From: a virus
Direction: 5' to 3' (one strand)
DNA length: 64,000 nucleotides
IMG/VR virus record: IMGVR_UViG_3300020183_000012
Coordinates: 32,001-96,000 of that record
Positions 39,733-61,555 of the stretch are shown in pieces (within the stretch, counting starts at the first letter, position 1; each line of letters starts with the position of its first letter). The notes beneath the pieces are model-generated. The model was given only the letters and a program-made list of their open reading frames with translations, did not search any database and was not told the origin of the DNA. Position numbers and translations under genes: made by a program.

Positions 39733-39751
39733 GAAACTTGCTCAGTCAATT

Positions 39752-39832: not shown

Positions 39833-39906
39833 GGGAGATTAGCTTAGCGGCCTAAAGCCTTCGACTCATAATCGAAATACCACTGGTTCGAATCCAGTAT
39901 CTCCCA
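39833..39906 (+). tRNA. tRNA(CAT): elongator Met or Ile2
   Basis: GGGAGAT/ATCTCCC-A; TTCGA-CTCATAA-TCGAA. Confidence 0.88.
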
Positions 39907-39947
39907 CTCGTTGATATTTAAGAATCTCGCTAATAAAGGAAACAGAA

Positions 39948-40325: not shown

Positions 40326-40412
40326 GGGCGGAGTGAGGGAATCTGGGAGAACGCTCACCTTCGGGTGGGCGTTTTTACATCCGGGGAATAAACTAATGGC
40401 GGAGACTCAAGA

Positions 40413-40817: not shown

Positions 40818-40821
40818 TAAA

Positions 40822-41733
40822 GTGATTCGTCATTTCGGGTATGCCTGTCAGAACATGACATTGAGTGAGTTGGTCAAACCCAAGAGCAAGAGGGTTTTCA
40901 CAGACCGCACTCTCAGGCTTGCCAATTTCAGCATCCGAAGAGTAGATGAACTGATCCTTCAAAATGTGAAGGACTTGCTCAAGATCGTCCATTGGAACAA
41001 GGATCACGGAATCCACTTCTTCCGGGTAGGCAGCAATGTGTTTCCATTCATGGATCACCCGGAACTGAAGTACGGAATTGACGATCTTGCACACGCATCA
41101 GACATCAAGGCGATCATCGCAAGGGCAGGAGAAGTGGCGCACTCAGCAGGGATGAGACTCAGTTCTCATCCGGGTCCGTACACCTGTCTTGCATCTACTG
41201 ATGAAGCGATTGTCCAAAAGTCAATCGACTCTCTCAATATGCACTCGCTCATGGGCGATCTGCTCGGTCACGATGAGTTCGTCATCAACATCCATGTTGG
41301 TGGCTCATACGGTGGAGATTTCAATGGGACCGCAGACAGGTTCATCGCCAACTGGAACAAATTGTCTGATCGGGTAAAATCTCGCCTTACCATCGAAAAC
41401 GATGACAAGAAGAATATGTGGACCGTTGACAAAATCAACGACCTCATCTGTAAAAGAATTAATCTGCCAATCGTGATGGACATTCATCATCACAGGCTCA
41501 ACCCCGGAACTCTGTCCGTGGAGGATGCGCTTATGACTTCCTTGATTACTTGGAAGAGTGGAAGGGTTCCGAAGATTCATTATTCGGACCCGCGTGACGA
41601 AGAGTATCCTCAAGCCCACCATGACTTCGTTGATGGATGGAAAGACCTTCCCGATGTCGGAATGGAGTTCGACTGTATGCTTGAGGCGAAGCATAAAGAG
41701 TTGGCATTGCTCAGGTTACGCGAACGAATCTGA
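40822..41733 (+). CDS. uvsE: UV DNA damage endonuclease
   Basis: GYAC.N, RLSSHPGPY, IHVGG, LTIENDD, DIHHH, PKIHYS, AH.D, MLEAK.KE. Confidence 0.93.
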   Translation: MIRHFGYACQNMTLSELVKPKSKRVFTDRTLRLANFSIRRVDELILQNVKDLLKIVHWNKDHGIHFFRVGSNVFPFMDHPELKYGIDDLAHASDIKAIIARAGEVAHSAGMRLSSHPGPYTCLASTDEAIVQKSIDSLNMHSLMGDLLGHDEFVINIHVGGSYGGDFNGTADRFIANWNKLSDRVKSRLTIENDDKKNMWTVDKINDLICKRINLPIVMDIHHHRLNPGTLSVEDALMTSLITWKSGRVPKIHYSDPRDEEYPQAHHDFVDGWKDLPDVGMEFDCMLEAKHKELALLRLRERI

Positions 41734-41849
41734 GAAACTTTCATCCGGTGAATAAAATAGTCCTGCCCGTGTGGGCGGGACTTGTCTTTTTCGGGACAGT
41801 CAGAACTTTCATCGAAGAAATAAACTAGCGTCACTAAGGAGAAATCACC

Positions 41850-42749
41850 ATGTCACCCATTACTGCTGCAATCAACAAGTTCAACGGCGTTTTCGTTCCC
41901 CCGGTCAATGACACCTACTTCATCACCGCAGAGGTTGAGAGTCTTTTCAACCGACTGAACATCCTGTCTAAGAACAAGACACAGAAGGTTCTTCTGCAAG
42001 GCGCACATGGCGCAGGCAAGACTGAGATGGCAATGCAGTACGCAGCCCGTGCGAACAGACCCATGCTCATCATGGACTGCGCGAATCTCAAGGAGCCGCG
42101 TGATTGGTTCGGATACAAGACAATCGTGAACGGAGAGATTGTGTGGCACGAATCTCAGTTCGACCGTGCAATCAGCACGGGTGGTCATGTCATCCTGCTT
42201 GACGAAATCAACCGTGTTCATCCCTCTGTCCTCAACACTCTTATCCCGCTGCTTGACGGTCGTGGATTTACCTACCTTGAGGAAAAGGGAGACTGCATCC
42301 GTGTCGGCAACGAGACTGTGATCTTTGCTACCATGAACGAGGGCGCGGGTTACACGGGTACAAGCGCGACCGACATCGCTCTGCGCGACCGCTTCTCTCG
42401 CATCGTTGAGGTTCAGTATCTTGTGAAGGCAAAGGAGATCGAACTGCTCTGCAAGCGCACGGGCATCAGCAAGTCTGACGCTACTAAGTTGGTGGACATT
42501 GCCAATCAGATTCGCAAGAAGAGCATGGGTGTTGGATCGTCCTTCTCTATGGCTTTCTCAACCCGTCAGTTGATCGCTGTCGCGGAGGACTTCGTTATTG
42601 ACGGCTCTGATTCACTTCAGTTCACCATGACCAATCTGTTCTCTGCCGAAGGTGGGACGAACAGCGAACGAGCCTCCGTGCTTCAGTTGATTCAAGGCAA
42701 GTTCGGCAGCGGCGAGGACGCCGCCAAGAGCAAGATCAAGGGCGAGTGA
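41850..42749 (+). CDS. MoxR/CbbQ/CobS-like AAA+ ATPase
   Basis: GAHGAGKT, ILLDEINR, IFATMNEG.GY.G, ALRDRF, FSTRQL. Confidence 0.88.
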   Translation: MSPITAAINKFNGVFVPPVNDTYFITAEVESLFNRLNILSKNKTQKVLLQGAHGAGKTEMAMQYAARANRPMLIMDCANLKEPRDWFGYKTIVNGEIVWHESQFDRAISTGGHVILLDEINRVHPSVLNTLIPLLDGRGFTYLEEKGDCIRVGNETVIFATMNEGAGYTGTSATDIALRDRFSRIVEVQYLVKAKEIELLCKRTGISKSDATKLVDIANQIRKKSMGVGSSFSMAFSTRQLIAVAEDFVIDGSDSLQFTMTNLFSAEGGTNSERASVLQLIQGKFGSGEDAAKSKIKGE

Positions 42750-42793
42750 AAGTTACATCCGCTGAATAAAGTAGTCGCACAAGGAGACTTCCC

Positions 42794-44719
42794 ATGAGCA
42801 AGAGAAACGACAAAGAAGGTCAATCCGAAAGCGGTTGGTGGTTTGACCGCTACGACTACGATTACCGTGATTACTCGTATAGCCGCGAGAGTGGTTCCCG
42901 TGGTTGGATGAGCAAACTCGGTGGCTACGATGACTGCGGCTATTCGGGATGGTACGGTTATCAAAAGGATGATCCGAAGCGGGTCTTTCAGAATCTACTC
43001 AATCAGTTGCAGAACAGCGCGAACATCATCGGTGATAACGATGATGGTGTCCTCAAGGTAAAGTGGTCGAATGGCGAGAATTGCAATGACACGACAGGTG
43101 TTGTCTACCTGTCTCCCGACAACCTCACCAACCAAGAAGGATGTGTCGAAGAAGAGACTGTTGATGCCATGACGGGCAAGGTCTACCTCGCATCAGCCAT
43201 GCGCGATACGGTCGATGAAGATTCGTACCGTGCTGCTCAAGTTGCCCGTGATATGTCGGCAAAAAGCCATATTCATCGTGGTGCTGTGAAGATTTGGGAA
43301 GCAATCGAAACCTCCATCGCCCGTCACAAGGTGATTGGGGATTGGGTTGGGTTTGCTCCCTATATCTGCAAGGATTCGGAACGCTCCTCTGCGACAAAGG
43401 ATGACATTCAGAAGTTCATTGATGCCTCTTCTGAAAATCCAAACATTGATGCTGCGGTATTGGCTATCTCTTGGAATCTCTTGAACCCAAGTGACCGCAT
43501 CAGGATTCCCGACTGCTATGACTCCTGTGTTGATGCCGCAGCAGAAATCCTAAGCGAGGAGATCAAGTCGAAGGATCGTTTCCGTACCGCGTTCTCTCTG
43601 TCATCGAAGATCGCGTCTATGCTCCCTAGTCCTCCGAAGGAAGAGGACAGCAGCGAAAGTGGGGTCGATAGCAAGGATGACGATGATGGTTGCAACTGTG
43701 CGGAATGTCGCAAGAGGAGAGCAGAAGCAAAGAAGAAGGGAAGCAAGAGTAAGGATCATACCCCGAAGGTATTGGATAGTTCTCTTCTTGGTGATCGCGT
43801 GACAAACAATACCGATGAAAGTCTCGCCAATCAAGAGGGCGAGAGCGATGATGAATCCGATACCGACAAGAGAGTTGACATTCAGTTGGACGGCGATGAT
43901 GATTTCTCAAGACAACATGAGTTCTTGATTGCGAAAGAGGGCAACAAGAGTCAGTTTGATTCCATACTGAAGAAGCACTCGTCTGCCATTCGTGCGATTC
44001 GCAACGGTCTTTCGTTCCGCAACAACTCCATGAAGATGCCCTCGTATGGTCATCGTTCAGGGGATATTGACGAGAACGCTCTGTTCAAGATCAAGATGAA
44101 TGATGACAGGATCATGCTTCGCAGCGAAACCATCTCTGAAAAGAGCATCGCCGTGTGCCTTCTCGTTGACGAGAGTGGTTCAATGGGTGGCGACAGAGTT
44201 CGCAATGCGCGTGATGTCGCAATCACTCTTGCCTCTGCATTGGGTGGCGTTGGTGGGATTACCACTTCTGTTTATGGTCACACAGCAGAGGAGAATGTTT
44301 CGGGTTGTACCATCAGAGAGTATTTCACTCCTCGCAATCCGAATCTCTCATCCTGCATGGGAATGTTGGGTCGCATGGAAAACCACGATGGATTTGCGAT
44401 TCAGCACACCGCCAATGCGTTTTACCGCGACTATGGAACCTATGATCGCAAGATCATGTTCGTCATCTCTGATGGTCAACCCGCAGGGAGTAACTATGGC
44501 GGATCGACAGCCCGTAAGCACATGAAGAAGGTTGCCGATGCCTGTCGCAGAAAACTTGGCGTGGAGGTCTACGGCATCGGCATTGACAAAGCATACGAGA
44601 ACAGGCATGGCAATGAAATGTATGGTCAGGACAACTTCGTGGTCTTGGAAGATGTTTCCTCGTCACTCCCGATCATGTCTCGCTTCATCCGTCAGATTGC
44701 GATGTCAATGAAGAAGTGA
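42794..44719 (+). CDS. vWA-domain (CobT-like) partner protein
   Basis: SGDID, LLVDESGSM (MIDAS), NHDG.AI, FVISDGQP, YGIGI; acidic linker. Confidence 0.85.
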   Translation: MSKRNDKEGQSESGWWFDRYDYDYRDYSYSRESGSRGWMSKLGGYDDCGYSGWYGYQKDDPKRVFQNLLNQLQNSANIIGDNDDGVLKVKWSNGENCNDTTGVVYLSPDNLTNQEGCVEEETVDAMTGKVYLASAMRDTVDEDSYRAAQVARDMSAKSHIHRGAVKIWEAIETSIARHKVIGDWVGFAPYICKDSERSSATKDDIQKFIDASSENPNIDAAVLAISWNLLNPSDRIRIPDCYDSCVDAAAEILSEEIKSKDRFRTAFSLSSKIASMLPSPPKEEDSSESGVDSKDDDDGCNCAECRKRRAEAKKKGSKSKDHTPKVLDSSLLGDRVTNNTDESLANQEGESDDESDTDKRVDIQLDGDDDFSRQHEFLIAKEGNKSQFDSILKKHSSAIRAIRNGLSFRNNSMKMPSYGHRSGDIDENALFKIKMNDDRIMLRSETISEKSIAVCLLVDESGSMGGDRVRNARDVAITLASALGGVGGITTSVYGHTAEENVSGCTIREYFTPRNPNLSSCMGMLGRMENHDGFAIQHTANAFYRDYGTYDRKIMFVISDGQPAGSNYGGSTARKHMKKVADACRRKLGVEVYGIGIDKAYENRHGNEMYGQDNFVVLEDVSSSLPIMSRFIRQIAMSMKK

Positions 44720-44972
44720 AAAATACAAAAATCTTGGAAGGATAATTAACCGTATGTCGATAAACATAATCCACATCGGCAGACCCAACCTTACCGTAAT
44801 TCAAATAATCGGTATAAATGGGAATCATGGTAGTCCCCCATCCTCACGGGTGGGGGATTTTACATCCGGGAAATAAAATAGTGGTGTCCGAATGCATCTG
44901 TCAGCCGTATCATAAAAAAAGAAAGGGGCGGGTCGAAACCCACCCCAATCTCCACAAGAATGAAATAACTAA

Positions 44973-45104
44973 TCAAACCTTCTTGTTCCAAGGGAAAAAC
45001 TTATTGACCCACGCCCAAAGGGGTGCGCCAATCAAGGCTCCTGCAACGAACACGACAACGCTGTAGAAAACCGTACCAAGCGTACTATTAAGAATCTCCT
45101 GCAT
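44973..45104 (-). CDS. 43-aa membrane peptide
   Basis: Strong SD AAGGAGG; MQEILNSTLGTVFYSVVVFVAGALIGAPLWAWVNKFFPWNKKV (not in ORF track). Confidence 0.7.
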   Translation of the reverse strand: MQEILNSTLGTVFYSVVVFVAGALIGAPLWAWVNKFFPWNKKV

Positions 45105-45306
45105 AGTTACCTCCTTAAAAAAGATTAATGGTATTTCGACCAAATGGACAACTTTCCTCTTTATCTGCGTCAGTTGGAAAGGGTCATGGAATGGTGGATA
45201 AGTACCGTGCCAACTTGGATGCAGCCCAAGTGGTTTTGGGACTTTTATTACTATCTCATCGACTAAGACGAGTCAAAGTTGCATCAGATGAATAAAGTAA
45301 CTTTGG

Positions 45307-45921
45307 ATGACACCCATGAGCGAAGAAAAATCACAGTCCATTTCCCTGTGGCTCGTCAATGAGAACGCTTGGGAATACAATGACGAATATCACTATCCGA
45401 CTGAGGGCTATCATACTTTTGGAATCTTTTCTGATTCTGAAGTCGCTCAGAAAGTCGTGAATGAAATTAACCTTCGCTATTGGAGCAAAGGAGTTGGAGA
45501 CTTCATCAGCGTAGACCACGAAGAGGAGTTTAAGACTTTTTGCGAAAAGCGTTCCATCGTTTGCGATGAAGATAGCGGAAATACTTGGAATGACTTTATT
45601 GAAGGATCAGCGACAAACATGACGGAAACTGATATTTTATCTTTTCTGTCTAGGATTGGATTGTCATTTGCTCATGTTGGTCAGCAAGTAACTCAAGTTT
45701 GCTTGAGTGAAACGGAAATCAACGGAGGCTTCTGTGCTACGCTTGGGGGTGGCATGGAGAGCGTAGTTCGTGACGCTATGAAAGGTCGTCCCAAGTCTGA
45801 TATCGTCAAAATCGGGAAGATTGCAGTTGGTGCTTGCAAGTGTGACGGATGCGGCTACATTAACCCTGCGGGGGTTGCTACTTGCCGCCTGTGTAATCGT
45901 GAAATCGAAAAAGAAGGATAA
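45307..45921 (+). CDS. Hypothetical protein with C-terminal Zn ribbon
   Basis: CDGCGYIN..CRLC. Confidence 0.65.
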   Translation: MTPMSEEKSQSISLWLVNENAWEYNDEYHYPTEGYHTFGIFSDSEVAQKVVNEINLRYWSKGVGDFISVDHEEEFKTFCEKRSIVCDEDSGNTWNDFIEGSATNMTETDILSFLSRIGLSFAHVGQQVTQVCLSETEINGGFCATLGGGMESVVRDAMKGRPKSDIVKIGKIAVGACKCDGCGYINPAGVATCRLCNREIEKEG

Positions 45922-45924
45922 CAA

Positions 45925-46758
45925 ATGTCTATTGACAAGAACATCAACTCTCACTTTGACGGCATCAACAAGGATACTGCCGAAGTAATCAACGATGCGA
46001 TCAACGCTCCCGCCCCTACCGCAATGTGCGGCATCATTGGTTTCGACAATCTTGAGTGGGGAGAGAAGGCAAAGGCTCTTGCTGATGCGGTCAGCAATGA
46101 AGATGACTTTGACTTATGTGATCTTATTGATGACATCAAGAAGGATTGCATCCATCAGATCAAGGGTCAGAAAGATGAAGGCGAACAGTTTGAGTTCGTT
46201 CAGGCAATCGTTTTTGACAAGTTCCTAGCGGTCATCAAGCCGATGCAGTTCCGTGACAGCGATGACAAGGACATTTTCATGGAGGCTGTCGGGGTCATCG
46301 TTGAGAAGATCAAGGAGGACTTCGATGCGAAGCCGATCTTCACTTTCTCATACGGAGAGGCGTGGACTTGTGCGCTTCGCAAGACTTTCGCCGTTCGTCT
46401 TGGCAAGGCTGCGGACAATAGAGATACAATCAATCGTCTTGTGAAGTCAACTGTTGATGAGTTTGGTGGCATTGGTGCTATCCCTGAGAACCATCCCGCG
46501 CTCAAGCGTTTCGACATTATGATGTTCCTGTCGCAGTTCAACACGCAAAAAGGGTACGCATCAATCATCAGCACAGTCCCTATGGATGATTCTGTCATAG
46601 ACGAACTGCACGAAGGACATCGTGCGATCCCACGGGCGCACTTGGTTGAGTCTGATGACTACGGCAAGATTGAAGGTCGAATGGTGATCGACACAGGGGG
46701 CTACGAGAAGATCAAGTTCGACATTTCCAAGTTCGATGGCGAACACACGGATATGTAA
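45925..46758 (+). CDS. Hypothetical protein
   Basis: 277 aa; shares DEFGG...IP..HP with 47277-48074. Confidence 0.7.
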   Translation: MSIDKNINSHFDGINKDTAEVINDAINAPAPTAMCGIIGFDNLEWGEKAKALADAVSNEDDFDLCDLIDDIKKDCIHQIKGQKDEGEQFEFVQAIVFDKFLAVIKPMQFRDSDDKDIFMEAVGVIVEKIKEDFDAKPIFTFSYGEAWTCALRKTFAVRLGKAADNRDTINRLVKSTVDEFGGIGAIPENHPALKRFDIMMFLSQFNTQKGYASIISTVPMDDSVIDELHEGHRAIPRAHLVESDDYGKIEGRMVIDTGGYEKIKFDISKFDGEHTDM

Positions 46759-47039
46759 TGAGACTCAAGATCAGCGAAACATTGTTCAAGGATGTATGCA
46801 AGAGTTCTGTCCTCAAGGGACATGGCAGAGTCATTGACCTTGATAGGGTTCGCCAATCTAAGGCTCATGCCTTCCGCGCTCAAATAATTCAACTAAACAG
46901 GATCAAGACATCTTTCGGTGAGACAAACAGATGCTTGGTTATTTTCTATGTTGACAGAGCATCAAGCGTCAAAGAGTTCATAGACATTGATGATGAGTTG
47001 ATGAAGGAGATTGTCGTTGAGCAAGACTCTGTTTGCTGA
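46758..47039 (+). CDS. Hypothetical protein
   Basis: TAATG coupling to the upstream gene. Confidence 0.55.
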   Translation: MRLKISETLFKDVCKSSVLKGHGRVIDLDRVRQSKAHAFRAQIIQLNRIKTSFGETNRCLVIFYVDRASSVKEFIDIDDELMKEIVVEQDSVC

Positions 47040-47280
47040 CGGGTTTGAGGATTGCGTGATTGGTTATTTCCGCAGATGCGGGCAACCAACGGTCATAGCC
47101 TATGATGCAGATAAGTGCATTCAGAAGATGGTCGCCCGTGATGGAATGACCGAAGAAGAAGCAATTGAGTATTTTGAGTTCAATGTGACAGGTGCTTGGG
47201 TTGGCGAAGGCACTCCTGCCTTCGTCTACAAAGTTACATCCCGTGAACTAAATAATATGGCAAAGGAAGGTTTTCTATGA
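47011..47280 (+). CDS. Conserved phage hypothetical protein
   Basis: ADGFEDC.IG..AYD..KCI..GMTEEEAIEYFEFNV.GAWVGE.TP. Confidence 0.75.
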   Translation: MSLSKTLFADGFEDCVIGYFRRCGQPTVIAYDADKCIQKMVARDGMTEEEAIEYFEFNVTGAWVGEGTPAFVYKVTSRELNNMAKEGFL

Positions 47281-48074
47281 ATAAGCAAAAGAAGAAGTGG
47301 AGCGTCATCAACAACAAAAAAATCAATGACAAGGAATCATTGATTGAAACGGAAATCGTTTTCTCCAACGATGATGCAACCGAGGTGGTGACATTCGGTT
47401 TCATTCCTTATAGTAAGCATCCCTTGTTCTCAGGTGGACTTATGTCTGTTCCCGACTTTGAAAACATGAGGACAACTGACAGACTTGATGCCCGTAGGAC
47501 ATTCGCTGCAACCTACCACAAGTTTGAGTTCACCACATACTGCACGAAGAACTCCAAGCGCGATAAGATGTATGATTGCGTCAACATCATCACGGAGAAC
47601 GGAGTTTGGTGGGGCATGGTCAGCAACACCAAGAATACGAGCGGAGTCGATTCAAACGGACTCATCAGCGCATCGAACTTTATTCTTGAGGAAGTTGAGG
47701 ACGAGGACAGCGACAATCCTTTTTGTGTGATCTATAGTGGTCCTCTTGTTCGTGCAAACGAAGATAAGGACATCAAAAGAATGAAGATTATCTCTGACGA
47801 GTTTGGTGGAGTTCACAACATTCCGCACGACCATCCTTTTTTCTTGACCCGTCAGAGGGTTGCTTCAATCGCCTTTTTCCGTTCGGGAGACAAGGGCAAG
47901 GCTGTGATTGCAAGTATCAAAAAGTCCGAACTGAGTAAATTTTGTTCTAACAAGCCCGATCTAGCATCTTCCGTATCGCCTTCTATTGCTCTTGAAAATA
48001 CCGAGGAAGGAGATGAAAGTTGGATTTCGCATCCAGTATTGAGCATCAAGAGACTTGCTATGGTGAGTCGGTGA
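47277..48074 (+). CDS. Hypothetical protein
   Basis: 265 aa; DEFGGVHNIPHDHP shared with 45925-46758. Confidence 0.65.
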   Translation: MNKQKKKWSVINNKKINDKESLIETEIVFSNDDATEVVTFGFIPYSKHPLFSGGLMSVPDFENMRTTDRLDARRTFAATYHKFEFTTYCTKNSKRDKMYDCVNIITENGVWWGMVSNTKNTSGVDSNGLISASNFILEEVEDEDSDNPFCVIYSGPLVRANEDKDIKRMKIISDEFGGVHNIPHDHPFFLTRQRVASIAFFRSGDKGKAVIASIKKSELSKFCSNKPDLASSVSPSIALENTEEGDESWISHPVLSIKRLAMVSR

Positions 48075-48206
48075 TCTACATGGTCCCGATGTTCCAAACG
48101 CCAAAATCACAACAACTTCTTTGGTTGCGAAGAAAAATCGCCCTTCAGAGGCTTCGGGAAAGTGTCGAGAAAGAAGAAGGCACTATTCGGCTGAAGGAAA
48201 TAATTA

Positions 48207-48512
48207 ATGAAGAATCAGAACAGAGATAAACTGATTGAGCATTTCTTCTTCAAAGGCGGATATGTCACCGTTGCCTTAGACTATTACGGCAATCGGTATG
48301 TGAGGGTTTGTATCAACGAGGCAGAGGATGAAAGTCTCTGCCCTGAACCTGAGTTTAACATTGACGCTTGGAGATATGCTTGGCGTTCGGTTTCTGTTAG
48401 CGTCAACACTCTGATGAACAGCACCGATTGTATCCTTACCGATAAAACAAAATCGGCAATCGAACAGATCAGAGAAAGAACACTTAATCAGTTTGTTCGT
48501 TCTTGTTCTTGA
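48207..48512 (+). CDS. Hypothetical protein
   Basis: SD AAGGA. Confidence 0.55.
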   Translation: MKNQNRDKLIEHFFFKGGYVTVALDYYGNRYVRVCINEAEDESLCPEPEFNIDAWRYAWRSVSVSVNTLMNSTDCILTDKTKSAIEQIRERTLNQFVRSCS

Positions 48513-48626
48513 ATGTCACTCCATGTATATGGAGTAGATAGAGAGACAACCGGATATTCGGTTCTGCCCCACCGAAAGCGAGATACATCCTCTTCCAATT
48601 TTTCATCCGGGGAATAAGATAGAGGC

Positions 48627-49178
48627 ATGGATACCTCCTCCGTTGACAATCCCAAAGCACATGAAGTGATTGGTCAAGACCTAGATTCTCGTCCGCGTGG
48701 CAGACCCGCTAAAGTCAGGTTTGAACCCGGAGAGATCGCTGAAGGCAAGATCATCACCGCAGAGATCATCTCCCGCGTTACGGGAGTTCCGACTGATTGC
48801 ATCGGAACTGACCGCTGGAGCATCGCTCGTGTGAAGTGTCGTGGTTATATCAAGACGGCTTTCAAGAGAGATTTCGGTCACGCCTGTTTCGTCAAGAACA
48901 GCGGTTCGGGTCTTGTTCCTGTTCGTGCAGTCGATACGCTGCGCGAGAGCGACAGGCGTTACCGCGAATCCATGCGAGACATCCGAGATAACGCGAGGGT
49001 GTGCTTGGAGACTGCGGCTCATAGCAACTCCATCAATCAGGCTGACAGGTCTAGTCTTACGAGTCGTGGTGCAGCCCTTGCTGCTATCGCATCATCGGTT
49101 GAGGCCCGTGAACTGAGCAAAAGACTGTGGATGGGCAAACGCGCTTTTGAAAAGCGAGATATTGCATCGGGTGAATAA
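48627..49178 (+). CDS. Hypothetical protein (possibly leaderless)
   Basis: ATG 6 nt after TAAGAT of the repeat motif; ends inside the next motif. Confidence 0.65.
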   Translation: MDTSSVDNPKAHEVIGQDLDSRPRGRPAKVRFEPGEIAEGKIITAEIISRVTGVPTDCIGTDRWSIARVKCRGYIKTAFKRDFGHACFVKNSGSGLVPVRAVDTLRESDRRYRESMRDIRDNARVCLETAAHSNSINQADRSSLTSRGAALAAIASSVEARELSKRLWMGKRAFEKRDIASGE

Positions 49179-49204
49179 ACTAAACCTGAAAGGAATAATG
49201 CCCA

Positions 49205-49660
49205 ATGGACGAGCATGAAAACTGCAAATGTGCATACTGTAGTGCGCCTGACAAGGCGGCGGAATGGGAAGCAAAGGCACTCATGGAATATGGGTTCTTT
49301 ATGCACTATGTTACGGACCATGACCCGCAGAGTCCGAGCGGATTCAATTGCCATACTCACGGTCTTGACCTGATCGGAGGATTTGATCTTCAGATCACCC
49401 TTCCACTCAAGCCTGAGATCGCTTCTTCTATTTTCCATGATCTTGCCGCAAGAACGAAAAGTGGTCGCAAGTTCTCCGATGGAGAGATTCTTGACGATGT
49501 TCTGTCAGGCGGATACAAGTGCAGGTTGGTCTTGGCAGAGGAATGTGAACGGCCTGTACTGAGGATCATTCTGCCCGACCCGAAGGGCAGAATTATGCCA
49601 AATGACATGGACAAGGCATACCGAGATGCACAGTATAAGGATATTTCATCCCGGGAATAA
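49205..49660 (+). CDS. DUF4262-like protein
   Basis: HTHGL....DLQI..P...A..IF..L; G..F.DG; LRII.PD..G..P. Confidence 0.6.
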   Translation: MDEHENCKCAYCSAPDKAAEWEAKALMEYGFFMHYVTDHDPQSPSGFNCHTHGLDLIGGFDLQITLPLKPEIASSIFHDLAARTKSGRKFSDGEILDDVLSGGYKCRLVLAEECERPVLRIILPDPKGRIMPNDMDKAYRDAQYKDISSRE

Positions 49661-49672
49661 AATAATAGTGCC

Positions 49673-50347
49673 ATGCACGCAACATATGCATTCCTGATCT
49701 CCGTGCCAAGTTGTTTCTCTCTTAAGGGAAAGGCAGAACACGCAGCAAAAGTCTTTGAAAACGACTATGCATCATCCAGTCACATGGATGAAAACAACTG
49801 GTACGAGATTTGCGGAATCATTTCTGAAGATGGCGAATCTTTCAACTTGCTTGATGGCAAGGAAGATTACAGGGGTCGTGATTCCATCATTTCAAAGTTC
49901 ATCAAGTCTAGTCCCGAGGAGACTTGGAACGGGCTAATTGATTTCAGTCACGAAACTGTCAAAGGTGAACTTATTTGGAAATTAGGTCTTTACAAGAAGG
50001 ATGGGACAGTAGGAAACCCTCCACCAATATGCAAGAAGGATTTGGCTGCTTATTTGGACGCACACATTGTTGAAACGATCCAGTCAAACAAAGTTTGGTG
50101 GATGGATGGTGTGGACATAGAGACAAAATCAAATGGAGATGAAGAGGTAGCCAAAATGCTTCAAGAGGAGGTTTCAAATCACATCCACAGGACAAGACTT
50201 ATAAGAGATTGCATTCTTTCTTCCCGGTTTGGGTTGTTCAGTCGTACAATGGCTACGCCATATGACTACCGCTGCTTCGACCTTCGTGATGCTGCCGAGA
50301 CTGAAGAGACACAAGATGTTGTCCTTTTGGTGGACATTCACACCTAA
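49673..50347 (+). CDS. Hypothetical phage protein
   Basis: MH.. start and terminal LLVDIHT motif. Confidence 0.7.
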   Translation: MHATYAFLISVPSCFSLKGKAEHAAKVFENDYASSSHMDENNWYEICGIISEDGESFNLLDGKEDYRGRDSIISKFIKSSPEETWNGLIDFSHETVKGELIWKLGLYKKDGTVGNPPPICKKDLAAYLDAHIVETIQSNKVWWMDGVDIETKSNGDEEVAKMLQEEVSNHIHRTRLIRDCILSSRFGLFSRTMATPYDYRCFDLRDAAETEETQDVVLLVDIHT

Positions 50348-50380
50348 ATGTCGAAAACAGAAATGACTGATTGAGCAAAA

Positions 50381-50455
50381 GGCTCTGTCGTCTAGTCTGG
50401 CTCAGGACTCAGCCCTTTCAAGGCTGCTACACGGGTTCGAATCCCGTCAGAGTCA
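50381..50455 (+). tRNA. tRNA-Glu(TTC)
   Basis: CAGCC-CTTTCAA-GGCTG. Confidence 0.92.
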
Positions 50456-50466
50456 CTCATAAAAAC

Positions 50467-50539
50467 GCCCTCATAGCTCAGTTGGTAGAGCAACCGGCTT
50501 TTAACCGGTTGGTCGTAGGTTCGAACCCTACTGAGGGCA
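50467..50539 (+). tRNA. tRNA-Lys(TTT)
   Basis: ACCGG-CTTTTAA-CCGGT. Confidence 0.93.
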
Positions 50540-50733
50540 TTTGGAGATGTGTAACACCGATGTCGGAGTCGGTGTTCCGAACAAGCGTCTAAGGGTACTC
50601 AGGCGAAGTACGGCAAGCCTTGAACTTGCACGGCTAACACCGAGTCTTAAATCTCTTGCATTTCCTCAAGTTTTACAAAGGATTTTTTCTTTTCATATAG
50701 AAATGCTTAGTTCTATGTGTTTGAAGGATTGTC

Positions 50734-51030
50734 ATGTCAAGAAAGAACAGATCATACATTTTGGTAGTTCGCTGCACCGTAGACGCGGTGGAATCTGTGC
50801 TTTCTGCGGAAAAAAGGTGTCCTTTTATTAGCAATCAGGTGGATTCCCGATATGCTTCGTCGTGGGGAAGTCAATACGAAATTGTTTATTCATGCAAACT
50901 AAAAAAAGACGCCTTTGCAATCAAGAGATGGTGGCTTGAAAATGGGCAACTGGACAATCCTGAGTTTTCAATAAATCAGTCATGCTCCACATATTCTACA
51001 ACCCGTCAAACGATTCTTTTAGGGTACTGA
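50734..51030 (+). CDS. Hypothetical protein
   Basis: SD AAGGA; 98 aa. Confidence 0.5.
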   Translation: MSRKNRSYILVVRCTVDAVESVLSAEKRCPFISNQVDSRYASSWGSQYEIVYSCKLKKDAFAIKRWWLENGQLDNPEFSINQSCSTYSTTRQTILLGY

Positions 51031-51191
51031 AATACGACTACGAAGTAAGGGACTTCATCAATCGCCCAATTTACTCAGGCGGTCAATGGAAATACATTCA
51101 ACTAAGTCCCGATGACTGCATCGCAAAGTTGATGCAATTCGTCAGAGATGAAACACCGAGCGATGAGTACCGCTCTGACGAACTTATTTGA
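50982..51191 (+). CDS. Hypothetical protein
   Basis: 69-aa ORF. Confidence 0.45.
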   Translation: MLHIFYNPSNDSFRVLKYDYEVRDFINRPIYSGGQWKYIQLSPDDCIAKLMQFVRDETPSDEYRSDELI

Positions 51192-51198
51192 CACAACA

Positions 51199-51243
51199 GG
51201 GTCAGTTTAGGTTGGTTGAGGCTTGTTTAGATAAGGTATGATT
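51199..51243 (+). repeat. Orphan N-G-N-Y-N pentamer tract (9 units)
   Basis: GGGTC AGTTT AGGTT GGTTG AGGCT TGTTT AGATA AGGTA TGATT. Confidence 0.7.
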
Positions 51244-51269
51244 TTTCATCGGGTGAATAAACTAATGGC

Positions 51270-51635
51270 ATGAGTCACCCTTACCATCACGCTCTGTCAA
51301 GTGTCAAGCGTTTCGGAGGCACTTGGAGCGATTACATTGAGATTCACGAATGGTTCGATCAGACGAAGGCTCTTATCCCTGATGTTCGTCATCGGGCAAT
51401 CCTTCATTCGTCTTTCGGAATCTTCCTGTGCCAACAGGTTTTCGGTGAGGTTCTTGTGCGGGATTCTGACGGAAAGCCCGTGCCTGTCCGTACCATTGCG
51501 GAGCAACACATTATTGAGGACATGGGATTTATCCCTACTCCTCAAGATTGGTTTGCGGGTATGCAGCCCGAGAAGTGGATGGCAAGAGGAGCAAAGCCTC
51601 TTTCCGCTGAAACAGAACAAGTTTTGGCTGACTAG
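51270..51635 (+). CDS. DUF6915-like protein
   Basis: HPYHHALSSVKRFGG..DY..IHEWFD..K....D.RHRA..H; R.IAEQHI.ED.GFIP. Confidence 0.75.
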   Translation: MSHPYHHALSSVKRFGGTWSDYIEIHEWFDQTKALIPDVRHRAILHSSFGIFLCQQVFGEVLVRDSDGKPVPVRTIAEQHIIEDMGFIPTPQDWFAGMQPEKWMARGAKPLSAETEQVLAD

Positions 51636-51645
51636 ACAATCTTAA

Positions 51646-51719
51646 GTTCCCGTGGCTCAGTTGGATAGAGCAGCCGCCTTCTAAGCGGCAGGTCGCTGGT
51701 TCGAGTCCAGCCGGGAACG
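51646..51719 (+). tRNA. tRNA-Arg(TCT)
   Basis: GCCGC-CTTCTAA-GCGGC. Confidence 0.93.
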
Positions 51720-51944
51720 CTTCTACGATACCCGGTTCATAGCCGGGTATTTTAACTAATCCGGGGAATCTGCATTATTTTGCTTGCCTATTTGGTCTAT
51801 TGGGCTATAGTTCCACCTCTGAAGAGATGATTCAAGGTGCATAGACTACATAGGTGAAAGTTGCATCCCGAGAATAGACTAATGGGGTAATAGTGCCGCA
51901 CCGAGTGGCACAACAAGTTGAGCATTCGCACAAGGATACAAATA

Positions 51945-52583
51945 ATGCCTGTTGCAAGTCCTATTGATACCGGAACACGCACCTTGACTTTCATCATCAA
52001 GGGAATCGCACCGTTGATGATGCACAACGGTCTGTTGGCTTCGCCCTTCTATTCGTATACCAAGCGTCTGAAGGAGATCACCAAGAAGCGCGGCAAGACC
52101 GAAGAGGATCATATTGAGGTGGCTAAGATTGAGTGGGAAGGCGGTCTTTACATGAGTAGCCGCGATGCGGATACTGGTCTTTGGTCTGAGGACTCGCATC
52201 CCATCATTCCCGCTGAGTGTCTTTACGCGACCCTTCTCGCGGGAGCAAAGGCTTTCAAAGGCGGGATGTCTTTCAAGGCAGGAGTGTTCATTACTCAATC
52301 GGCTCGTCTGCGCTACAAGGGAGACAACAAGATCAAGACTCTTGCTGACCTTCGTGGCAAAGATATTTTCATCGACTCCCGCCTCGTTGATGTAAACGGC
52401 AGCAAGGTGACGCGAACCCGCCCGATCTTCCACGATTGGTCGTGCGAGTTCAATGTTGAGTATGATCCGTCCGTTGTTGATGAAGCAGACCTTATCCGTT
52501 GGGTTCAAACGGGCGGTAGGCTCAAGGGTCTTTGCGAACTGCGTCCAACGATGGGTCGGTTCACCATTGAGTCTTACAAGTGA
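51945..52583 (+). CDS. Stand-alone RAMP/Cas7-like protein
   Basis: 212 aa from MPVASP (SD CAAGGA); beta1 LTFIIKGIAPLMMHN, PIIPAECL, thumb-like IDSRLVDVNGSKVTRTRP, WSCEFNVEY, C-terminal G-rich loop GGRLKGLCELRPTMGRF. Confidence 0.65.
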   Translation: MPVASPIDTGTRTLTFIIKGIAPLMMHNGLLASPFYSYTKRLKEITKKRGKTEEDHIEVAKIEWEGGLYMSSRDADTGLWSEDSHPIIPAECLYATLLAGAKAFKGGMSFKAGVFITQSARLRYKGDNKIKTLADLRGKDIFIDSRLVDVNGSKVTRTRPIFHDWSCEFNVEYDPSVVDEADLIRWVQTGGRLKGLCELRPTMGRFTIESYK

Positions 52584-52589
52584 TGCTCT

Positions 52590-52920
52590 CCTCTCTCCGC
52601 AGAAATGCGTAGAGAGGCTTTCTTATGGTCTGCTTTGGCAGGATACGGTTCGTTGCGCTCAGGAGTGGTCTGCTTCTCGCCTTCTACCGGGGAAACCCGG
52701 TTTGGAGGCTTTCTTTAGGTCGGATGCCCTCAGATTGGGCTAGTTTAGGTAGGGTGTGATGCGATGTGTTCCGCTTCTCGCCTTCTACCGGGGAAACCCG
52801 GTTTGGAGGCTTTCTTTAGTCTTGTTGGGGCATGATACGGTCAGGTTCGGTAAGGTCAGAAGAGGTATGCTTCTCGCCTTCTACCGGGGAAACCCGGTTT
52901 GAAGGCTTTCGTGGGTACGG
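52590..52920 (+). repeat. CRISPR-like array of GAAA-hairpin repeats with pentamer-periodic spacers
   Basis: 42-bp repeat GCTTCTCGCCTTCTACCGGGGAAACCCGGTTTGGAGGCTTTC at 52672, 52773, 52869 (one substitution in copy 3); divergent first hairpin 52590-52617; spacers of 10, 12 and 11 NGNYN units. Confidence 0.9.
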
Positions 52921-52992
52921 CAAAGTTGCATCCGTTGAATAAAGTAGTCTTGCCCAAGTGGGCAATCTCAATCATCTAGGAGCAGAACAACA

Positions 52993-54003
52993 ATGGCACA
53001 TGGAATTAAGAATCGTGATCGCGTCCTCATCGTTGGTGACCGTGGTTGGCACGGGTTGGGTCAGCAGATGGATTCGATCAGCATGACCGATCTCAAGGAG
53101 CAGTTCCCATACTCCTACGAGAAGGTTCCGATGTTCACCGCCGATGGCGTGGAAGTTGAAGGCTTCAAGGCTGTCATCACTACCGATGACAAGCAGAGCA
53201 ACGGTGTCGTGGGTGACACCTACGAGATCATCAACCTTGACGAGATGTTTGGTCTTGCTAACGATCTTGTTGTTGCTCACGGGACGGGTCGTGTTGTCAG
53301 CGCAGGAAGCCTTCACAACCGCGAGGACTTTTTCGTTGATCTCGGCATCGACCGCGAGTTCCGCAGCGGTGAGGATGTCAACAAGCCATTCATCGGTATC
53401 ACCAACAACTTCTGTGGTATGCGCCACTTCGTTGCGGGAGCGCACATGAACAGGATCGTCTGCGCCAATACTCTGAATCTCATGCTCCGCGAAGTCAAGG
53501 GTTCTCCTCGCGCCATCAAGATTCGTCACACTAAGGGTGCATGGAACCGACTCGCTGAGGCGAAGCGCATTCTCGGCATCACCCTTGCCGCGTTCGACAA
53601 GGCTGATGAGGAGATGCACCAAATGATCTCCAAGAAGATGACCGATGCAGAGATCGCTTCGTACTATGATGCCATCATGCCGATGACCAACATCCCGCCT
53701 CGCCGTGCAGACGAGAACGAGGAGCAGTATGAAGCCCGTGTTGAAACCATCGAACGCGCAAACCGCAAGGCTTCCCGTGTCCGTGCAGAGTGGAGCATGA
53801 CGCTTGACAACGAGCGCGGCGTTCTTGGTCAGGAGCCGAACCTTTGGCTTGCGATGAACTCCGTGACCAAGTGGGTTCAGCATGAGAATCAGGTGAAGAA
53901 CGAATCGACCAATCCCCTGATCCGTGGTTGGAGCAACCGTTTTGCAACGGGCTTCAAGATGACAAACGAAGCCCATGACGCAGCATTGTCTGTGCTTGGG
54001 TAA
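52993..54003 (+). CDS. DUF932/DUF945 (TIGR03299-like) phage/plasmid protein
   Basis: WHGLG, SAGSL, RIVCANTL, IKIRHT, LWLAMNSVT.W.QH. Confidence 0.85.
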   Translation: MAHGIKNRDRVLIVGDRGWHGLGQQMDSISMTDLKEQFPYSYEKVPMFTADGVEVEGFKAVITTDDKQSNGVVGDTYEIINLDEMFGLANDLVVAHGTGRVVSAGSLHNREDFFVDLGIDREFRSGEDVNKPFIGITNNFCGMRHFVAGAHMNRIVCANTLNLMLREVKGSPRAIKIRHTKGAWNRLAEAKRILGITLAAFDKADEEMHQMISKKMTDAEIASYYDAIMPMTNIPPRRADENEEQYEARVETIERANRKASRVRAEWSMTLDNERGVLGQEPNLWLAMNSVTKWVQHENQVKNESTNPLIRGWSNRFATGFKMTNEAHDAALSVLG

Positions 54004-54012
54004 ACCGAACTA

Positions 54013-54100
54013 AGGTTAGGTATGGCGAGTCTAGGTATGCCCTGCCATTGTATGGTCTGTCAAGTTCAGTCCCCTTCACCGGAGAAATCCGGTGGAGGGG
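54013..54100 (+). repeat. Orphan array unit: 12 NGNYN pentamers + GAAA hairpin
   Basis: AGGTT AGGTA TGGCG AGTCT AGGTA TGCCC TGCCA TTGTA TGGTC TGTCA AGTTC AGTCC then CCCCTTCACCGGA-GAAA-TCCGGTGGAGGGG. Confidence 0.8.
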
Positions 54101-54122
54101 TTTTGCCGATAAACATAATGAC

Positions 54123-54193
54123 TGCCTTGTGGTGAAACGGTATCACGGGAGACTTTGGATCTCCTTTTCTTGGTTCAAATCCAAGCAGGGCAA
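54123..54193 (+). tRNA. tRNA-Gln(TTG)
   Basis: TGCCTTG/CAGGGCA; GGAGA-CTTTGGA-TCTCC. Confidence 0.9.
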
Positions 54194-54236
54194 ATCTTTC
54201 ATCCTGGAAATAAACTAATCGGACAAGGAGAACCGG

Positions 54237-54452
54237 ATGCAGAACCCCGTTACCATCACCGAAAACTGCCGAATCACCGGAGAGGCTTACTCAGTCACGG
54301 TGGATTCAGGCGACCTTGAGCGTTACAAGAACGGCGAGGGTCTGATTCAGAACATCTTCCACTACCTTAACGCAGGGGATCGTGAGTTCATCAAGACAGG
54401 CATCTCGCCCAAGGGTTGGGAAATCATGTTTGCAAACGAAGAAGAGGACTAA
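54237..54452 (+). CDS. Small conserved phage protein
   Basis: LIQNIF.YL.A.DREFIKTGISP..W motif; repeat promoter + SD. Confidence 0.75.
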   Translation: MQNPVTITENCRITGEAYSVTVDSGDLERYKNGEGLIQNIFHYLNAGDREFIKTGISPKGWEIMFANEEED

Positions 54453-54454
54453 CA

Positions 54455-54712
54455 ATGTCATTTGAACTACGCGCACGGATTATGATTGGAAGAGGGTACA
54501 AGTTTGCCCTCGCTCAGATTTCTGAGGACGGTGTTAATGAGTTCATCCCTGCATTTGCAAACCGTGGTGCTTTTCTTGTTCCCATATGGATCAAGTCTCA
54601 GGATGCCCACAATGTTGTCGCGGTTCTTGGTAGTGAACCAACAGACGATCAGAAGGAAGTGACCATCCCGCGTGGCTACATCCTCAGCATCGCAATGATG
54701 CCAAGTATGTAA
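54455..54712 (+). CDS. Hypothetical protein
   Basis: SD GAGGA before MSFELRAR. Confidence 0.55.
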   Translation: MSFELRARIMIGRGYKFALAQISEDGVNEFIPAFANRGAFLVPIWIKSQDAHNVVAVLGSEPTDDQKEVTIPRGYILSIAMMPSM

Positions 54713-54776
54713 GTGCCATCTCAATAATTGGCAATCTTTCATCGGGCAAATAAACTAATAGGACAAGGAGAACCGG

Positions 54777-54974
54777 ATGCAGAACCCCTTTGACAACGAA
54801 CCTGAGTGTTCCTGTGACGGCTGTGACGGCAAGTTTCCCGAATCATTGATGCGTCCTGCCACCTACCGTTATGTGGACGAATCTTGGGAGACTTTCCACT
54901 TCTGCCCGTCATGCATCGCTAGAGATAGAAAACTGGATGAAGAAGCGCACCTCCGGTCACCGCACCTGTGGTGA
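54777..54974 (+). CDS. Small Zn-finger-like protein
   Basis: CDGC..FCPSC; repeat promoter + SD. Confidence 0.65.
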   Translation: MQNPFDNEPECSCDGCDGKFPESLMRPATYRYVDESWETFHFCPSCIARDRKLDEEAHLRSPHLW

Positions 54975-54999
54975 TCGACAAATGAACTAACTGTGCAAA

Positions 55000-55203
55000 A
55001 TGAGCAAGAAAGACGATTCTTCAAGAAAATCAAAGAGCCTTGGGGAACTGATTGACCGTTGTCCAAGATGCGGTCGTACAATCACTTGGTTCAACGACAT
55101 TCCGCTCAGGGGTTTCTGTTGGGGAACGCCCGATAACGAACACGAAGAGTATTCCGTGATTGTCTGTCAGAAGAAGATCGAAGATTTTTCATCGCGGAAA
55201 TAA
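55000..55203 (+). CDS. Small Cys-containing protein
   Basis: CPRCG; ends within the next repeat motif. Confidence 0.55.
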   Translation: MSKKDDSSRKSKSLGELIDRCPRCGRTITWFNDIPLRGFCWGTPDNEHEEYSVIVCQKKIEDFSSRK

Positions 55204-55226
55204 AGTAGTTGCACAGGAAACAAGCA

Positions 55227-55544
55227 ATGAGCGATGCATTTTCTAAAGAAATAAACTCTCATGTCTCCTCCATGAAGCAGGACATGAAAGATGTGGTTGA
55301 CAAAGAACTTAAGTCTCTTGTCCTCTCCCTTGTTTCCGAGGGAATCGTCAATGCCAATTTTGACGACAAGGGCTATCTGAACGACATTTCGTTTACGGAA
55401 GGAGGCAAGGCTTTCATGGAAGTCTTGGCTTTCAATCTATCGCACCGAATCGAAAAGATTATTGAGAGCGATGGCATCAAGGAAAAGGAAAAGCAGGAAC
55501 TTAAATCAGTCCTGAAGCACATGAAAAACTTGCCGCTCCCGTGA
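55227..55544 (+). CDS. Hypothetical protein
   Basis: Repeat promoter, SD AGGA. Confidence 0.6.
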
Positions 55545-55565
55545 TGGAGCCGTATAGTTTGGAAA

Positions 55566-55639
55566 GCCCTCGTAGTTCAGTTGGATAGAGCGACGGTTTC
55601 CTAAACCGTAGGTCACAGGTTCGAACCCTGTCGGGGGCG
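55566..55639 (+). tRNA. tRNA-Arg(CCT)
   Basis: ACGGT-TTCCTAA-ACCGT. Confidence 0.92.
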
Positions 55640-59699: not shown

Positions 59700-60035
59700 A
59701 TGACATTCATTCCCGCCAACTTTGATGCCGACCAGTACGAACTGTATACCCCCGACAACGGAGACCGGAGTCAGTCAGAGGATGCGGCAGCGAAGATCAA
59801 TAACATCATCAACTGTCAACTTCAGAACAACATCACGAATTGTCGCACCGCTGCGGTTGGTGCTGCCACGAAGATGCTCCGTGAGGTTGAGCGTCAGATC
59901 ATCGCACTTGGATATGAAAAGAAGTTTGGTGCGCTAGACACCGAGCCTCGCTACATCATCCGCCTTGCAATCGCCCGTAACATCCGCAAGTGGGCGGATA
60001 TGGAAGAATACGAGTTCAACACGGACTCATTCTGA
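59700..60035 (+). CDS. Hypothetical protein
   Basis: Repeat promoter + SD; first 10 codons identical to gene 57541. Confidence 0.7.
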   Translation: MTFIPANFDADQYELYTPDNGDRSQSEDAAAKINNIINCQLQNNITNCRTAAVGAATKMLREVERQIIALGYEKKFGALDTEPRYIIRLAIARNIRKWADMEEYEFNTDSF

Positions 60036-60067
60036 AACTTTCATCGGGCAAATAAACTAACTAGGCA

Positions 60068-60289
60068 ATGTTTCATCCTTCCCAACAGCACCGCAGAGGG
60101 ACTCCCGTGATTCAACTCCATGAAACTGTAATGGGTCAAAGGCTGATTCTTCGTGACATTCCGACTTTGGTTGACCAACTGGCTCTCCTCAACCGTAACC
60201 TTGAGGCGTTGACAATTCAACTTTCCTCACTCCGTGCAGAACAGAAGCCTAACACCGAGGCTGAAGTTTCATCGGAGAAAATGAAATAA
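60068..60289 (+). CDS. Hypothetical protein
   Basis: HET.MG.R....D.P.L..QL..LN motif. Confidence 0.6.
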   Translation: MFHPSQQHRRGTPVIQLHETVMGQRLILRDIPTLVDQLALLNRNLEALTIQLSSLRAEQKPNTEAEVSSEKMK

Positions 60290-60306: not shown

Positions 60307-60573
60307 ATGCACGAAGAACTCATGACACTTGACCAGTATATCGAAGCCCTCAACGCCATGAAAAAGACGCATGGTGGGGACAGCCTGATCTTCGTCTTTG
60401 ATCGCTCGTTCAGCGATCTTGCTACTCAGGTTAAGAAGATGGGCAAGCGAGAGTTTGACCGTGAAATGTCGGACGATGATGTGGACAGCATCATCTTCTC
60501 CATCAACCCGAGTCCTGTTCACGATGCCATCAACGGCGCGATTGAGAGTGCCTTTGATTCGTATGTGAAGTAA
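60307..60573 (+). CDS. Hypothetical protein
   Basis: Repeat motif + SD AAGGA. Confidence 0.6.
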   Translation: MHEELMTLDQYIEALNAMKKTHGGDSLIFVFDRSFSDLATQVKKMGKREFDREMSDDDVDSIIFSINPSPVHDAINGAIESAFDSYVK

Positions 60574-60603
60574 ACTTTCATCGCAGGAATAAACTAACTG
60601 CGG

Positions 60604-60665
60604 ACTCGTCTGAGCGAGTATAAACAGGGTATTAGGCTCAGAGCGGCAGGGAAACCTGCTTTACC
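60604..60665 (+). ncRNA. Pistol self-cleaving ribozyme
   Basis: P1 ACTCG/CGAGT with loop TCTGAG pairing to CTCAGA (pseudoknot); ATAAACAG linker; P2 GGTA/TACC; TTAG; GCG; P3 GCAGG-GAAA-CCTGC; predicted cleavage 60660/60661. Confidence 0.88.
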
Positions 60666-60863
60666 GCCTCCCACGCCATGCAGAAAGTCCGGACTTTCAG
60701 CACCGCGTTCCAACTGTGGTGAATGCGCAGCCGCAGGGGAGAAAGAGCGTCGGCATCCTTCCCTCGCTCAAGGTGTTAAAAAGGGTGCGAACGGAACCCA
60801 CCGCAGCCCCACTAGACCCAAAGAGGAGAAATTCTCGCGGGAAAGGTGGGGCTGTGCGTTGGC
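60666..60863 (+). ncRNA. Uncharacterised multi-stem structured RNA downstream of the pistol ribozyme
   Basis: No ORF; helices GAAAGT/ACTTTC, CGCGTTC/GAATGCG, GAGCG/CGCTC, GGGT/ACCC, CGCAGCCCCACT/GGTGGGGCTGTG. Confidence 0.55.
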
Positions 60864-60908
60864 AAACTTACATCAGTCGAATAAACTAATTTCAGCAAGG
60901 AGGCTAAA

Positions 60909-61091
60909 ATGCTTGTAATCACCCGTAGAGAAGGCGAAGAGATCGTGATAGGTGAGCCACGCGCACCGCTTGGGATCATCCGTATTGTAGCCATCAAGGG
61001 AAGCCAAGTTAAAGTGGCACTTGAGTTCCCGAAGGAAGTCCCGGTGAACCGCCGCGAGATTGCGGAAGAGATCATCAGCGAAGAGGAGTGA
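60909..61091 (+). CDS. csrA: Carbon storage regulator CsrA homologue
   Basis: MLVITRREGEEIVIG..IRIV.IKGSQVKVALEFPKEVPVNRREI. Confidence 0.88.
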   Translation: MLVITRREGEEIVIGEPRAPLGIIRIVAIKGSQVKVALEFPKEVPVNRREIAEEIISEEE

Positions 61092-61333: not shown

Positions 61334-61555
61334 ATGCTTAGCATCACCCGTTCAGAAGGCCAAGAAGTTGTGGTCGGAAATCCTGCCGCACCGCTTGGAA
61401 TTATTCGGATTGAAAAGATCAAGAGCGGGAAGGTAAGGATAACCTTTGACTTCCCAAGAGAGATGCCTGTGCATCGCGCTGAGGTTGCAGCCGAAATCTT
61501 GCGTGATCGGGAGGCTCAAGACAAGGAGTTCATGAAGAGGACTTTCGGGGAGTGA
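61334..61555 (+). CDS. csrA: Second CsrA homologue
   Basis: MLSITRSEGQEVVVG..IRI..IKSGKVRITFDFPREMPVHRAEV. Confidence 0.85.
   Translation: MLSITRSEGQEVVVGNPAAPLGIIRIEKIKSGKVRITFDFPREMPVHRAEVAAEILRDREAQDKEFMKRTFGE

Follow-up and report, generated by a model that had tools for sequence, protein, structure and literature searches.

To our knowledge, pistol ribozymes still await a demonstrated biological role. Phage T4 encodes two stable RNAs of unknown function, species 1 and 2 (rnaC and rnaD), in its tRNA cluster, and the bacterial RNAs CsrB and RsmZ carry about one GGA site per 15–20 nt. Ribozymes that define the ends of phage RNAs are known, as gene-flanking hammerhead clusters (PMC3088659) and as theta ribozymes beside phage tRNAs (PMC10879173). 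Cleavage by a pistol leaves a 5′-OH on the downstream product (PMC4604425). In this class, a purine at position 32, the G33–C41 pair, G40 and G42 are important by structure and mutagenesis (PMC6154101), and the GU at the cleavage junction is only modestly conserved, whereas the junction's length is strict (Harris et al., PMC4604425). csrA genes are also known in phages, where they occur in 1.2% of genomes (PMC7366521).

We describe here a phage locus in which a pistol precedes a structured RNA and two csrA genes. The ribozyme class is already known; the novelty lies in the RNA family and in how cleanly promoter, pistol and cargo RNA are arranged beside csrA. The window (the whole stretch of 64,000 nucleotides that was analysed) is part of a 146.7-kb uncultured virus record with an estimated completeness of 36%, and near-identical DNA is present in many lake-water metagenomes. 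The nearest cellular relatives of the CsrA genes are found in Phycisphaerae/Planctomycetota MAGs, several of them lake-derived; therefore, the host of the phage is probably a freshwater Phycisphaerales bacterium. The window contains a full-length tmRNA (122 bits) with a tRNA array directly 3′ of it, and 16 tRNA matches in all (5732–7806 and 38813–55639). The tmRNA is of the standard form, whereas a more distant related phage contig of 142 kb (L143) has a permuted tmRNA at 5165–5458 (RF04321, 63.6 bits).

Relatives were found by starting from CsrA1 and the upstream 88-aa ORF, whose close homologues lie on metagenome contigs that share the gene order; a search pattern made from the invariant positions of the RNA gave one further relative in metagenome_contigs. 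The 26 scanned loci whose sequence reaches upstream of the RNA reduce to 12 distinct versions (alignment A5), all from lake-metagenome phage contigs. In viral_contigs, metagenome_contigs and Phycisphaerae genomes, the RNA family was seen only in one narrow phage lineage, so that about five deep branches underlie the covariation. With blastn, the locus had no match in the phage collection, and a search of viral_contigs with the 88-aa ORF found no related phages. The pistol and the RNA were absent from the viral_contigs relatives reached via CsrA1 and a 180-aa ORF, and nothing was found in viral_contigs with an exact 23-mer or with the degenerate invariant pattern. In metagenome_contigs the latter matched the present lineage and otherwise gave only two chance matches (L134 and L136). 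Covariance model R1 gave nothing credible in 5 + 151 Phycisphaerae genomes (best E 0.6 and 0.025 per genome). When the locus was looked for among sequencing runs, it was in no RNA run; the pistols in the sole run labelled RNA-Seq, which is probably DNA, were all other ones whose flanks differ. In runs X1 and X20, from the same lake metagenomes, contigs carry other pistols with about 90% identical cores (60604–60646) and quite different flanks; pistols are therefore common in those communities.

The RNA cassette is delimited by two copies of a repeat:

60572–60597, + strand: promoter-like repeat AAACTTTCATCGCAGGAATAAACTAA, one of 30 copies, with the −10-like TAAACT at 60590–60595
60864–60889, + strand: next promoter-like repeat, conserved in all relatives, which marks the end of the RNA cassette

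The repeat motif, AAAsTTnCATC-N4-rAATAAACTAA, has 30 copies in the window, all on the + strand, compared with 0.01 expected. These copies bear out what a sequence-only reading of the locus had proposed, namely that a repeat promoter adjoins the pistol and that the cassette ends at the next promoter. TAAACT ends 8 nt before the pistol, which makes a transcription start at about 60602–60603, 1–2 nt before the ribozyme, a reasonable inference. After the other copies there are usually about 5 nt, then a short leader with an ATG behind it. The upstream copy has a destroyed −10-like part in the L029 lineage, where it falls within a longer upstream ORF, yet the pistol and the RNA persist; in this lineage, therefore, the ribozyme would release the RNA from an mRNA's 3′ end.

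Several other features of these cassettes were observed. The 30 promoter-like cassettes extend over 26894–63793, and in 15 of them the leader is ACAAGGAGA, which contains ACARGGA; the csrA2 leader reads ACAAGGACA. At 41735–41828, a promoter-like motif is directly followed by a canonical hairpin-plus-U terminator, with a second promoter copy 68 nt further on; such an element might yield a very short transcript or act as an attenuator. In the cassette at 60035–60289, an ATG lies 7 nt past the promoter motif with no Shine-Dalgarno sequence; the 73-aa ORF there is leaderless, or else its start is mis-called. Short identical words common to neighbouring cassettes, such as the 10-nt CATCCTTCCC, were judged to be due to chance.

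The ribozyme that follows the first repeat has the following elements:

60604–60665, + strand: pistol self-cleaving ribozyme (RF02679, 55.6 bits)
60604–60608/60615–60619, + strand: P1, 100% paired
60609–60614/60637–60642, + strand: pseudoknot of 6 bp that links the P1 loop with the P2/P3 junction, 97.6% paired, with one compensatory change (C-G to U-A)
60628–60631/60662–60665, + strand: P2, 100% paired, with one compensatory change (A-U to U-A)
60646–60650/60655–60659, + strand: P3, 100% paired, with one compensatory change (G-C to A-U)

The complete pistol fold claimed from the sequence was upheld by the search with the Rfam model: the match spans model positions 1–68 of 68, the score is well over the gathering cut-off of 34.5 bits, and all catalytic positions are present. 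G32, G33, G40, C41 and G42 (60635, 60636 and 60643–60645) are invariant in the 12 versions, and the P3–P2 junction is exactly 2 nt in all of them. The predicted cut junction is U60660/U60661, as had been noted earlier; it is U-U in most versions and A-U in L029 and L033, and the U at +1 is kept. G-U, a feature that does not define the pistol class, is absent from this junction. Because GU is only modestly conserved among pistols and the junction length is strict, U-U and A-U are within the known variation of the class.

The pistol is the most conserved segment of the locus (88–100% nucleotide identity, compared with 70–93% for the upstream flanking ORF), and it lies directly upstream of the RNA in all 26 loci with upstream sequence. 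It is the only pistol in the 146-kb record, and no other Rfam family matched 60500–61000 with E up to 10. As judged from the model match, the catalytic positions and the compensatory changes, the pistol is genuine and is predicted to cleave itself. The cut would leave an RNA that starts at U60661 with a 5′-OH.

The stretch downstream of the predicted cut has these features:

60661–60860 (approximate end), + strand: structured RNA, about 200 nt long, the predicted 3′ cleavage product and an uncatalogued family recognized by covariation
60668–60741, + strand: three-way-junction domain (H1–H4), supported by covariation
60668–60672/60737–60741, + strand: H1, which closes the junction, with 2 double-changed pairs
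60673–60676/60705–60708, + strand: H2, with 1 double-changed pair
60679–60681 and 60683–60688 / 60693–60698 and 60700–60702, + strand: H3, with loop CCGG and 6 double-changed pairs
60714–60720/60730–60736, + strand: H4, with 2 double-changed pairs
60745–60769 (stem 60745–60749/60765–60769), + strand: H5, a GAGCG/CGCUC hairpin with a 15-nt CU-rich loop, 100% paired, 2 of 5 pairs double-changed
60783–60799 (stem 60783–60786/60796–60799), + strand: H6, a GGGU/ACCC hairpin whose 9-nt loop has the invariant AA(C/A)GGA at its end, 100% paired, 3 of 4 pairs double-changed
60802–60862 (stem 60802–60812/60846–60856), + strand: H7, a long hairpin with a variable apical part; 11 pairs (93% paired), among which are 2 double changes and 3 single-sided ones
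60823–60827/60832–60836, + strand: GAAA-capped stem in H7

Two lines of evidence indicate that this stretch is a conserved structured non-coding RNA of no known family. First, its pairings are maintained by compensatory changes. With a 50-pair model on the 12 versions, 93.9% of the cells are paired, and 19 of the 50 pairs are changed on both sides, compared with 7.8 ± 1.9 in shuffles (0/500 reached this value); slid controls, in which partners were moved by 1–3 columns, gave at most 7 double-changed pairs, and trials of the covariation measure gave 0–1% false positives. A 7-sequence alignment that included the pistol gave 20 double-changed pairs, compared with 6.5 ± 1.9. Eight helices are supported by covariation, where the sequence-only reading had counted five or more. 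The folding energy of the 205-nt RNA is −86.9 kcal/mol (z = −3.7), and the G-U pairs of H4 and H7 are compatible with the + strand alone, which is therefore the strand of the RNA. The primary sequence of the RNA drifts as fast as the coding neighbours (65–98% identity).

Second, no reading frame is conserved among the relatives: the stop-free stretches differ and are broken by 1–2 nt indels. The only + strand ORF with a start codon in the cassette is a 57-aa GTG frame, in keeping with the earlier view that the cassette has no ORF. A protein-coding reading was rejected: in L021-type contigs, the 86-aa gene call begins within the promoter and the pistol, and it is not conserved. A tRNA-like reading was ruled out by ARAGORN, which found no tRNA. 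The RNase P-like words GAAAGUCCGG and AGGGUGCG were attributed to chance: no RNase P model matched, and AGGGUGCG covaries as H6.

The released RNA would begin with 7 single-stranded nt, and the linker of the junction domain, GUUCCAACUG, is invariant. The GAGCG/CGCTC stem seen in the sequence corresponds to H5; the minimum free energy pairing of this middle part was discarded, being contradicted by the two compensatory changes in H5. The GAAA-capped stem nested in a long helix was likewise confirmed, the helix having 11 bp instead of the 12 claimed. The possible pseudoknot between AGGGGAG and CTTCCCT fared less well: it is 94% paired with no double change, and it excludes H1. As it competes with H1, in which two pairs are changed on both sides, it is not the best-supported pairing; the AGGGGAG/CUUCCCU pairing may be an alternative state. 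It was also observed that H3 with its CCGG loop (60683–60698) is a perfect 16-nt palindrome, and that the L033 loop, CAUG, is self-complementary as well; a loop–loop or duplex dimer is therefore conceivable, from what amounts to one event only.

At the 3′ end of the RNA, H7, whose stem is strong and conserved, looks like a terminator. In the L033 lineage it is reduced to a compact basal stem followed by UUUU, and H7 is therefore read as a weak terminator. In most versions the U-run after H7 has 2–3 U and it was not called by the terminator scan, so that read-through into the next cassette is possible. If H7 terminates poorly, the trimmed RNA could be a cis-acting leader, that is, a long 5′ UTR that controls the downstream message by attenuation or by pairing of AGGGGAG with CUCCC or CUUCCCU. 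The weak U-run is consistent with such a leader, and so are the two mutually exclusive partners of AGGGGAG, both mostly paired, and the layout, with a junction domain followed by a terminator-like stem. However, in all lineages H7 is separated from the next gene by a full promoter-like motif that has a short leader of its own, and no riboswitch family matches. Moreover, the next gene after the RNA varies by lineage (csrA, an MSDFDP-family ORF or a 130-aa ORF), which makes a gene-specific leader unlikely. We consider control in cis improbable.

Gene-flanking ribozymes are known in prophages (PMC3088659), and the pistol could similarly act as a generic punctuation of transcripts, the fold merely insulating or stabilizing neighbouring messages with no function in trans. 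This explanation is very improbable, and less probable than a leader: a single pistol is present in 146 kb despite about 30 cassettes with the same promoter, and eight covarying helices plus invariant single-stranded segments, in a fold of about 200 nt, go far beyond the needs of an insulator.

The locus is thus best read as a stand-alone phage small-RNA gene in which the ribozyme makes the 5′ end of an RNA that acts in trans, and we consider this likely. An early-type phage promoter would start transcription 1–2 nt ahead of the pistol. The pistol would then fold and cut between U60660 and U60661, as suggested by its intact fold and the known chemistry, removing a piece of about 58 nt that carries the 5′-triphosphate. 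The remaining RNA of about 200 nt, with a 5′-hydroxyl, would comprise the three-way junction, two hairpins and the terminator-like hairpin shown by covariation, and would act in trans during infection as a stable regulatory or protein-binding RNA. In L029, the same ribozyme would release it from the upstream mRNA. The earlier proposal that the ribozyme matures and stabilizes a phage non-coding RNA thus stands in part, as regards a genuine pistol, a conserved structured RNA downstream of it and, by pistol chemistry, a 5′-OH start at U60661; maturation itself is a prediction, and so is any stabilizing effect of the 5′-OH.

Two genes of the CsrA family lie downstream of the RNA:

60909–61091, + strand: csrA1, 60 aa (Pfam PF02599, E 1.4e-13)
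61334–61555, + strand: csrA2, 73 aa (Pfam PF02599, E 3.9e-10)

The RNA is 48 nt before csrA1 and 473 nt before csrA2. CsrA1 aligns to E. coli CsrA (1Y00) with the equivalent of Arg44 kept, and the key RNA-binding Arg is kept in both proteins. CsrA1 is devoid of the C-terminal extension of the 70- to 76-aa Phycisphaerae CsrAs that it most resembles. On every RNA-bearing contig that extends far enough, a CsrA gene is present 0–1.2 kb behind the RNA, with one intervening ORF in L037 and L145 and four ORFs in L132. One of the distant relatives that carry no pistol and no RNA has a weak, sub-threshold CsrA-like match, and in the others no CsrA gene was called within 5 kb on either side. On L002, an unrelated phage contig with high GC, csrA is directly followed (3180–3300) by at least four tandem units of about 31 nt containing ACAAGGGGUAG.

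This neighbourhood makes the two phage CsrA proteins the likeliest partner of the RNA, via its conserved GGA loops, in an assignment that we regard as tentative. The released RNA would be a decoy that binds phage or host CsrA dimers at GGA loops and times the repression of early genes with ACAAGGAGA-type leaders. In its favour, a CsrA gene accompanies the RNA on all sufficiently long contigs, and no bona fide CsrA was seen nearby in the relatives devoid of it. The versions have GGA at matching positions in the loop of H3 (10 of 11 versions), the 3′ strand of H1, the loop of H6 (all versions) and the apex of H7, even where the surrounding sequence is replaced; three to four positions are conserved. 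In addition, the leaders of half of the cassettes read ACAAGGA, which we take to be the core of the CsrA SELEX consensus RUACARGGAUGU.

Other observations argue against a decoy. GGA is not enriched in the RNA (5 in 200 nt, compared with 3.9 ± 1.5 in dinucleotide shuffles, p 0.32; 1 ANGGA compared with 0.9), and a decoy role is therefore only a lead. There is no match to the CsrB, CsrC or Rsm models. In three lineages the apical GGA takes part in base pairing, and one GGA is inside helix H1. Co-occurrence with csrA may reflect a single gain of a gene block. The host-type Phycisphaerales genomes encode FliW, a protein antagonist of CsrA, which is not encoded in the phage record, and the 156 Phycisphaerae genomes searched contain no homologue of the RNA. 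On balance, a decoy is possible but unlikely. A more complete version, in which the phage carries its own Csr circuit composed of the two CsrA paralogs, the ACAAGGAGA leaders as CsrA sites and the ribozyme-matured decoy titrating CsrA, is somewhat more doubtful still.

Whatever its partner, the stand-alone RNA belongs to an uncatalogued family of abundant lake phages, which probably infect Phycisphaerales, and is positionally tied to phage CsrA genes. Since the ribozyme is at the very start of the transcript, its only upstream cargo would be the triphosphate end; together with a conserved, covarying RNA downstream, this makes the locus a clean system in which to study the benefit of a 5′-OH in vivo. 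If the CsrA link is functional, Csr-type regulation by an RNA antagonist would be extended to phages and to a new phylum. If the reading as a full Csr circuit is true, the locus would provide the first case of a CsrA antagonist RNA encoded by a phage, and also the first antagonist of the RNA kind in Planctomycetota, a lineage in which the cells employ a protein, FliW.

The ribozyme resembles the described pistol class (RF02679; Weinberg 2015; Harris 2015, PMC4604425) in its P1, 6-bp pseudoknot, P2, P3 and 2-nt junction, in the conserved AUAAA, UUAGG and GAGCG segments and in its phage setting. As in that class, the predicted cut is near the 3′ end of the motif, so that nearly the whole ribozyme would leave with the 5′ piece. 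It differs from the class in that the junction is U-U or A-U and not G-U, the motif lies 1–2 nt past the inferred transcription start, the likely host phylum is Planctomycetota and not Firmicutes, and the downstream cargo is a dedicated non-coding RNA.

As in the hammerhead clusters and with the theta ribozymes, a small phage ribozyme would define an RNA end. Here, in contrast, a single ribozyme heads the transcript and would make the 5′ end of a structured RNA that is not a tRNA; it neither separates cistrons nor trims the 3′ trailer of a tRNA.

Like CsrB, CsrC and RsmX/Y/Z, the RNA is small and stand-alone, has GGA in hairpin loops and is encoded in the same genome as CsrA. It differs from them in that its GGA density is three to four times lower and not above chance, with no match to their models, in that it forms a three-way junction and not a string of short GGA hairpins, and in that binding of CsrA is putative.

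Finally, like T4 rnaC and rnaD, it is a small, stable-looking RNA gene with no known job in a large, tRNA-rich phage. Its sequence and fold are unrelated to theirs, and it is predicted to be matured by its own ribozyme and not by host RNases.
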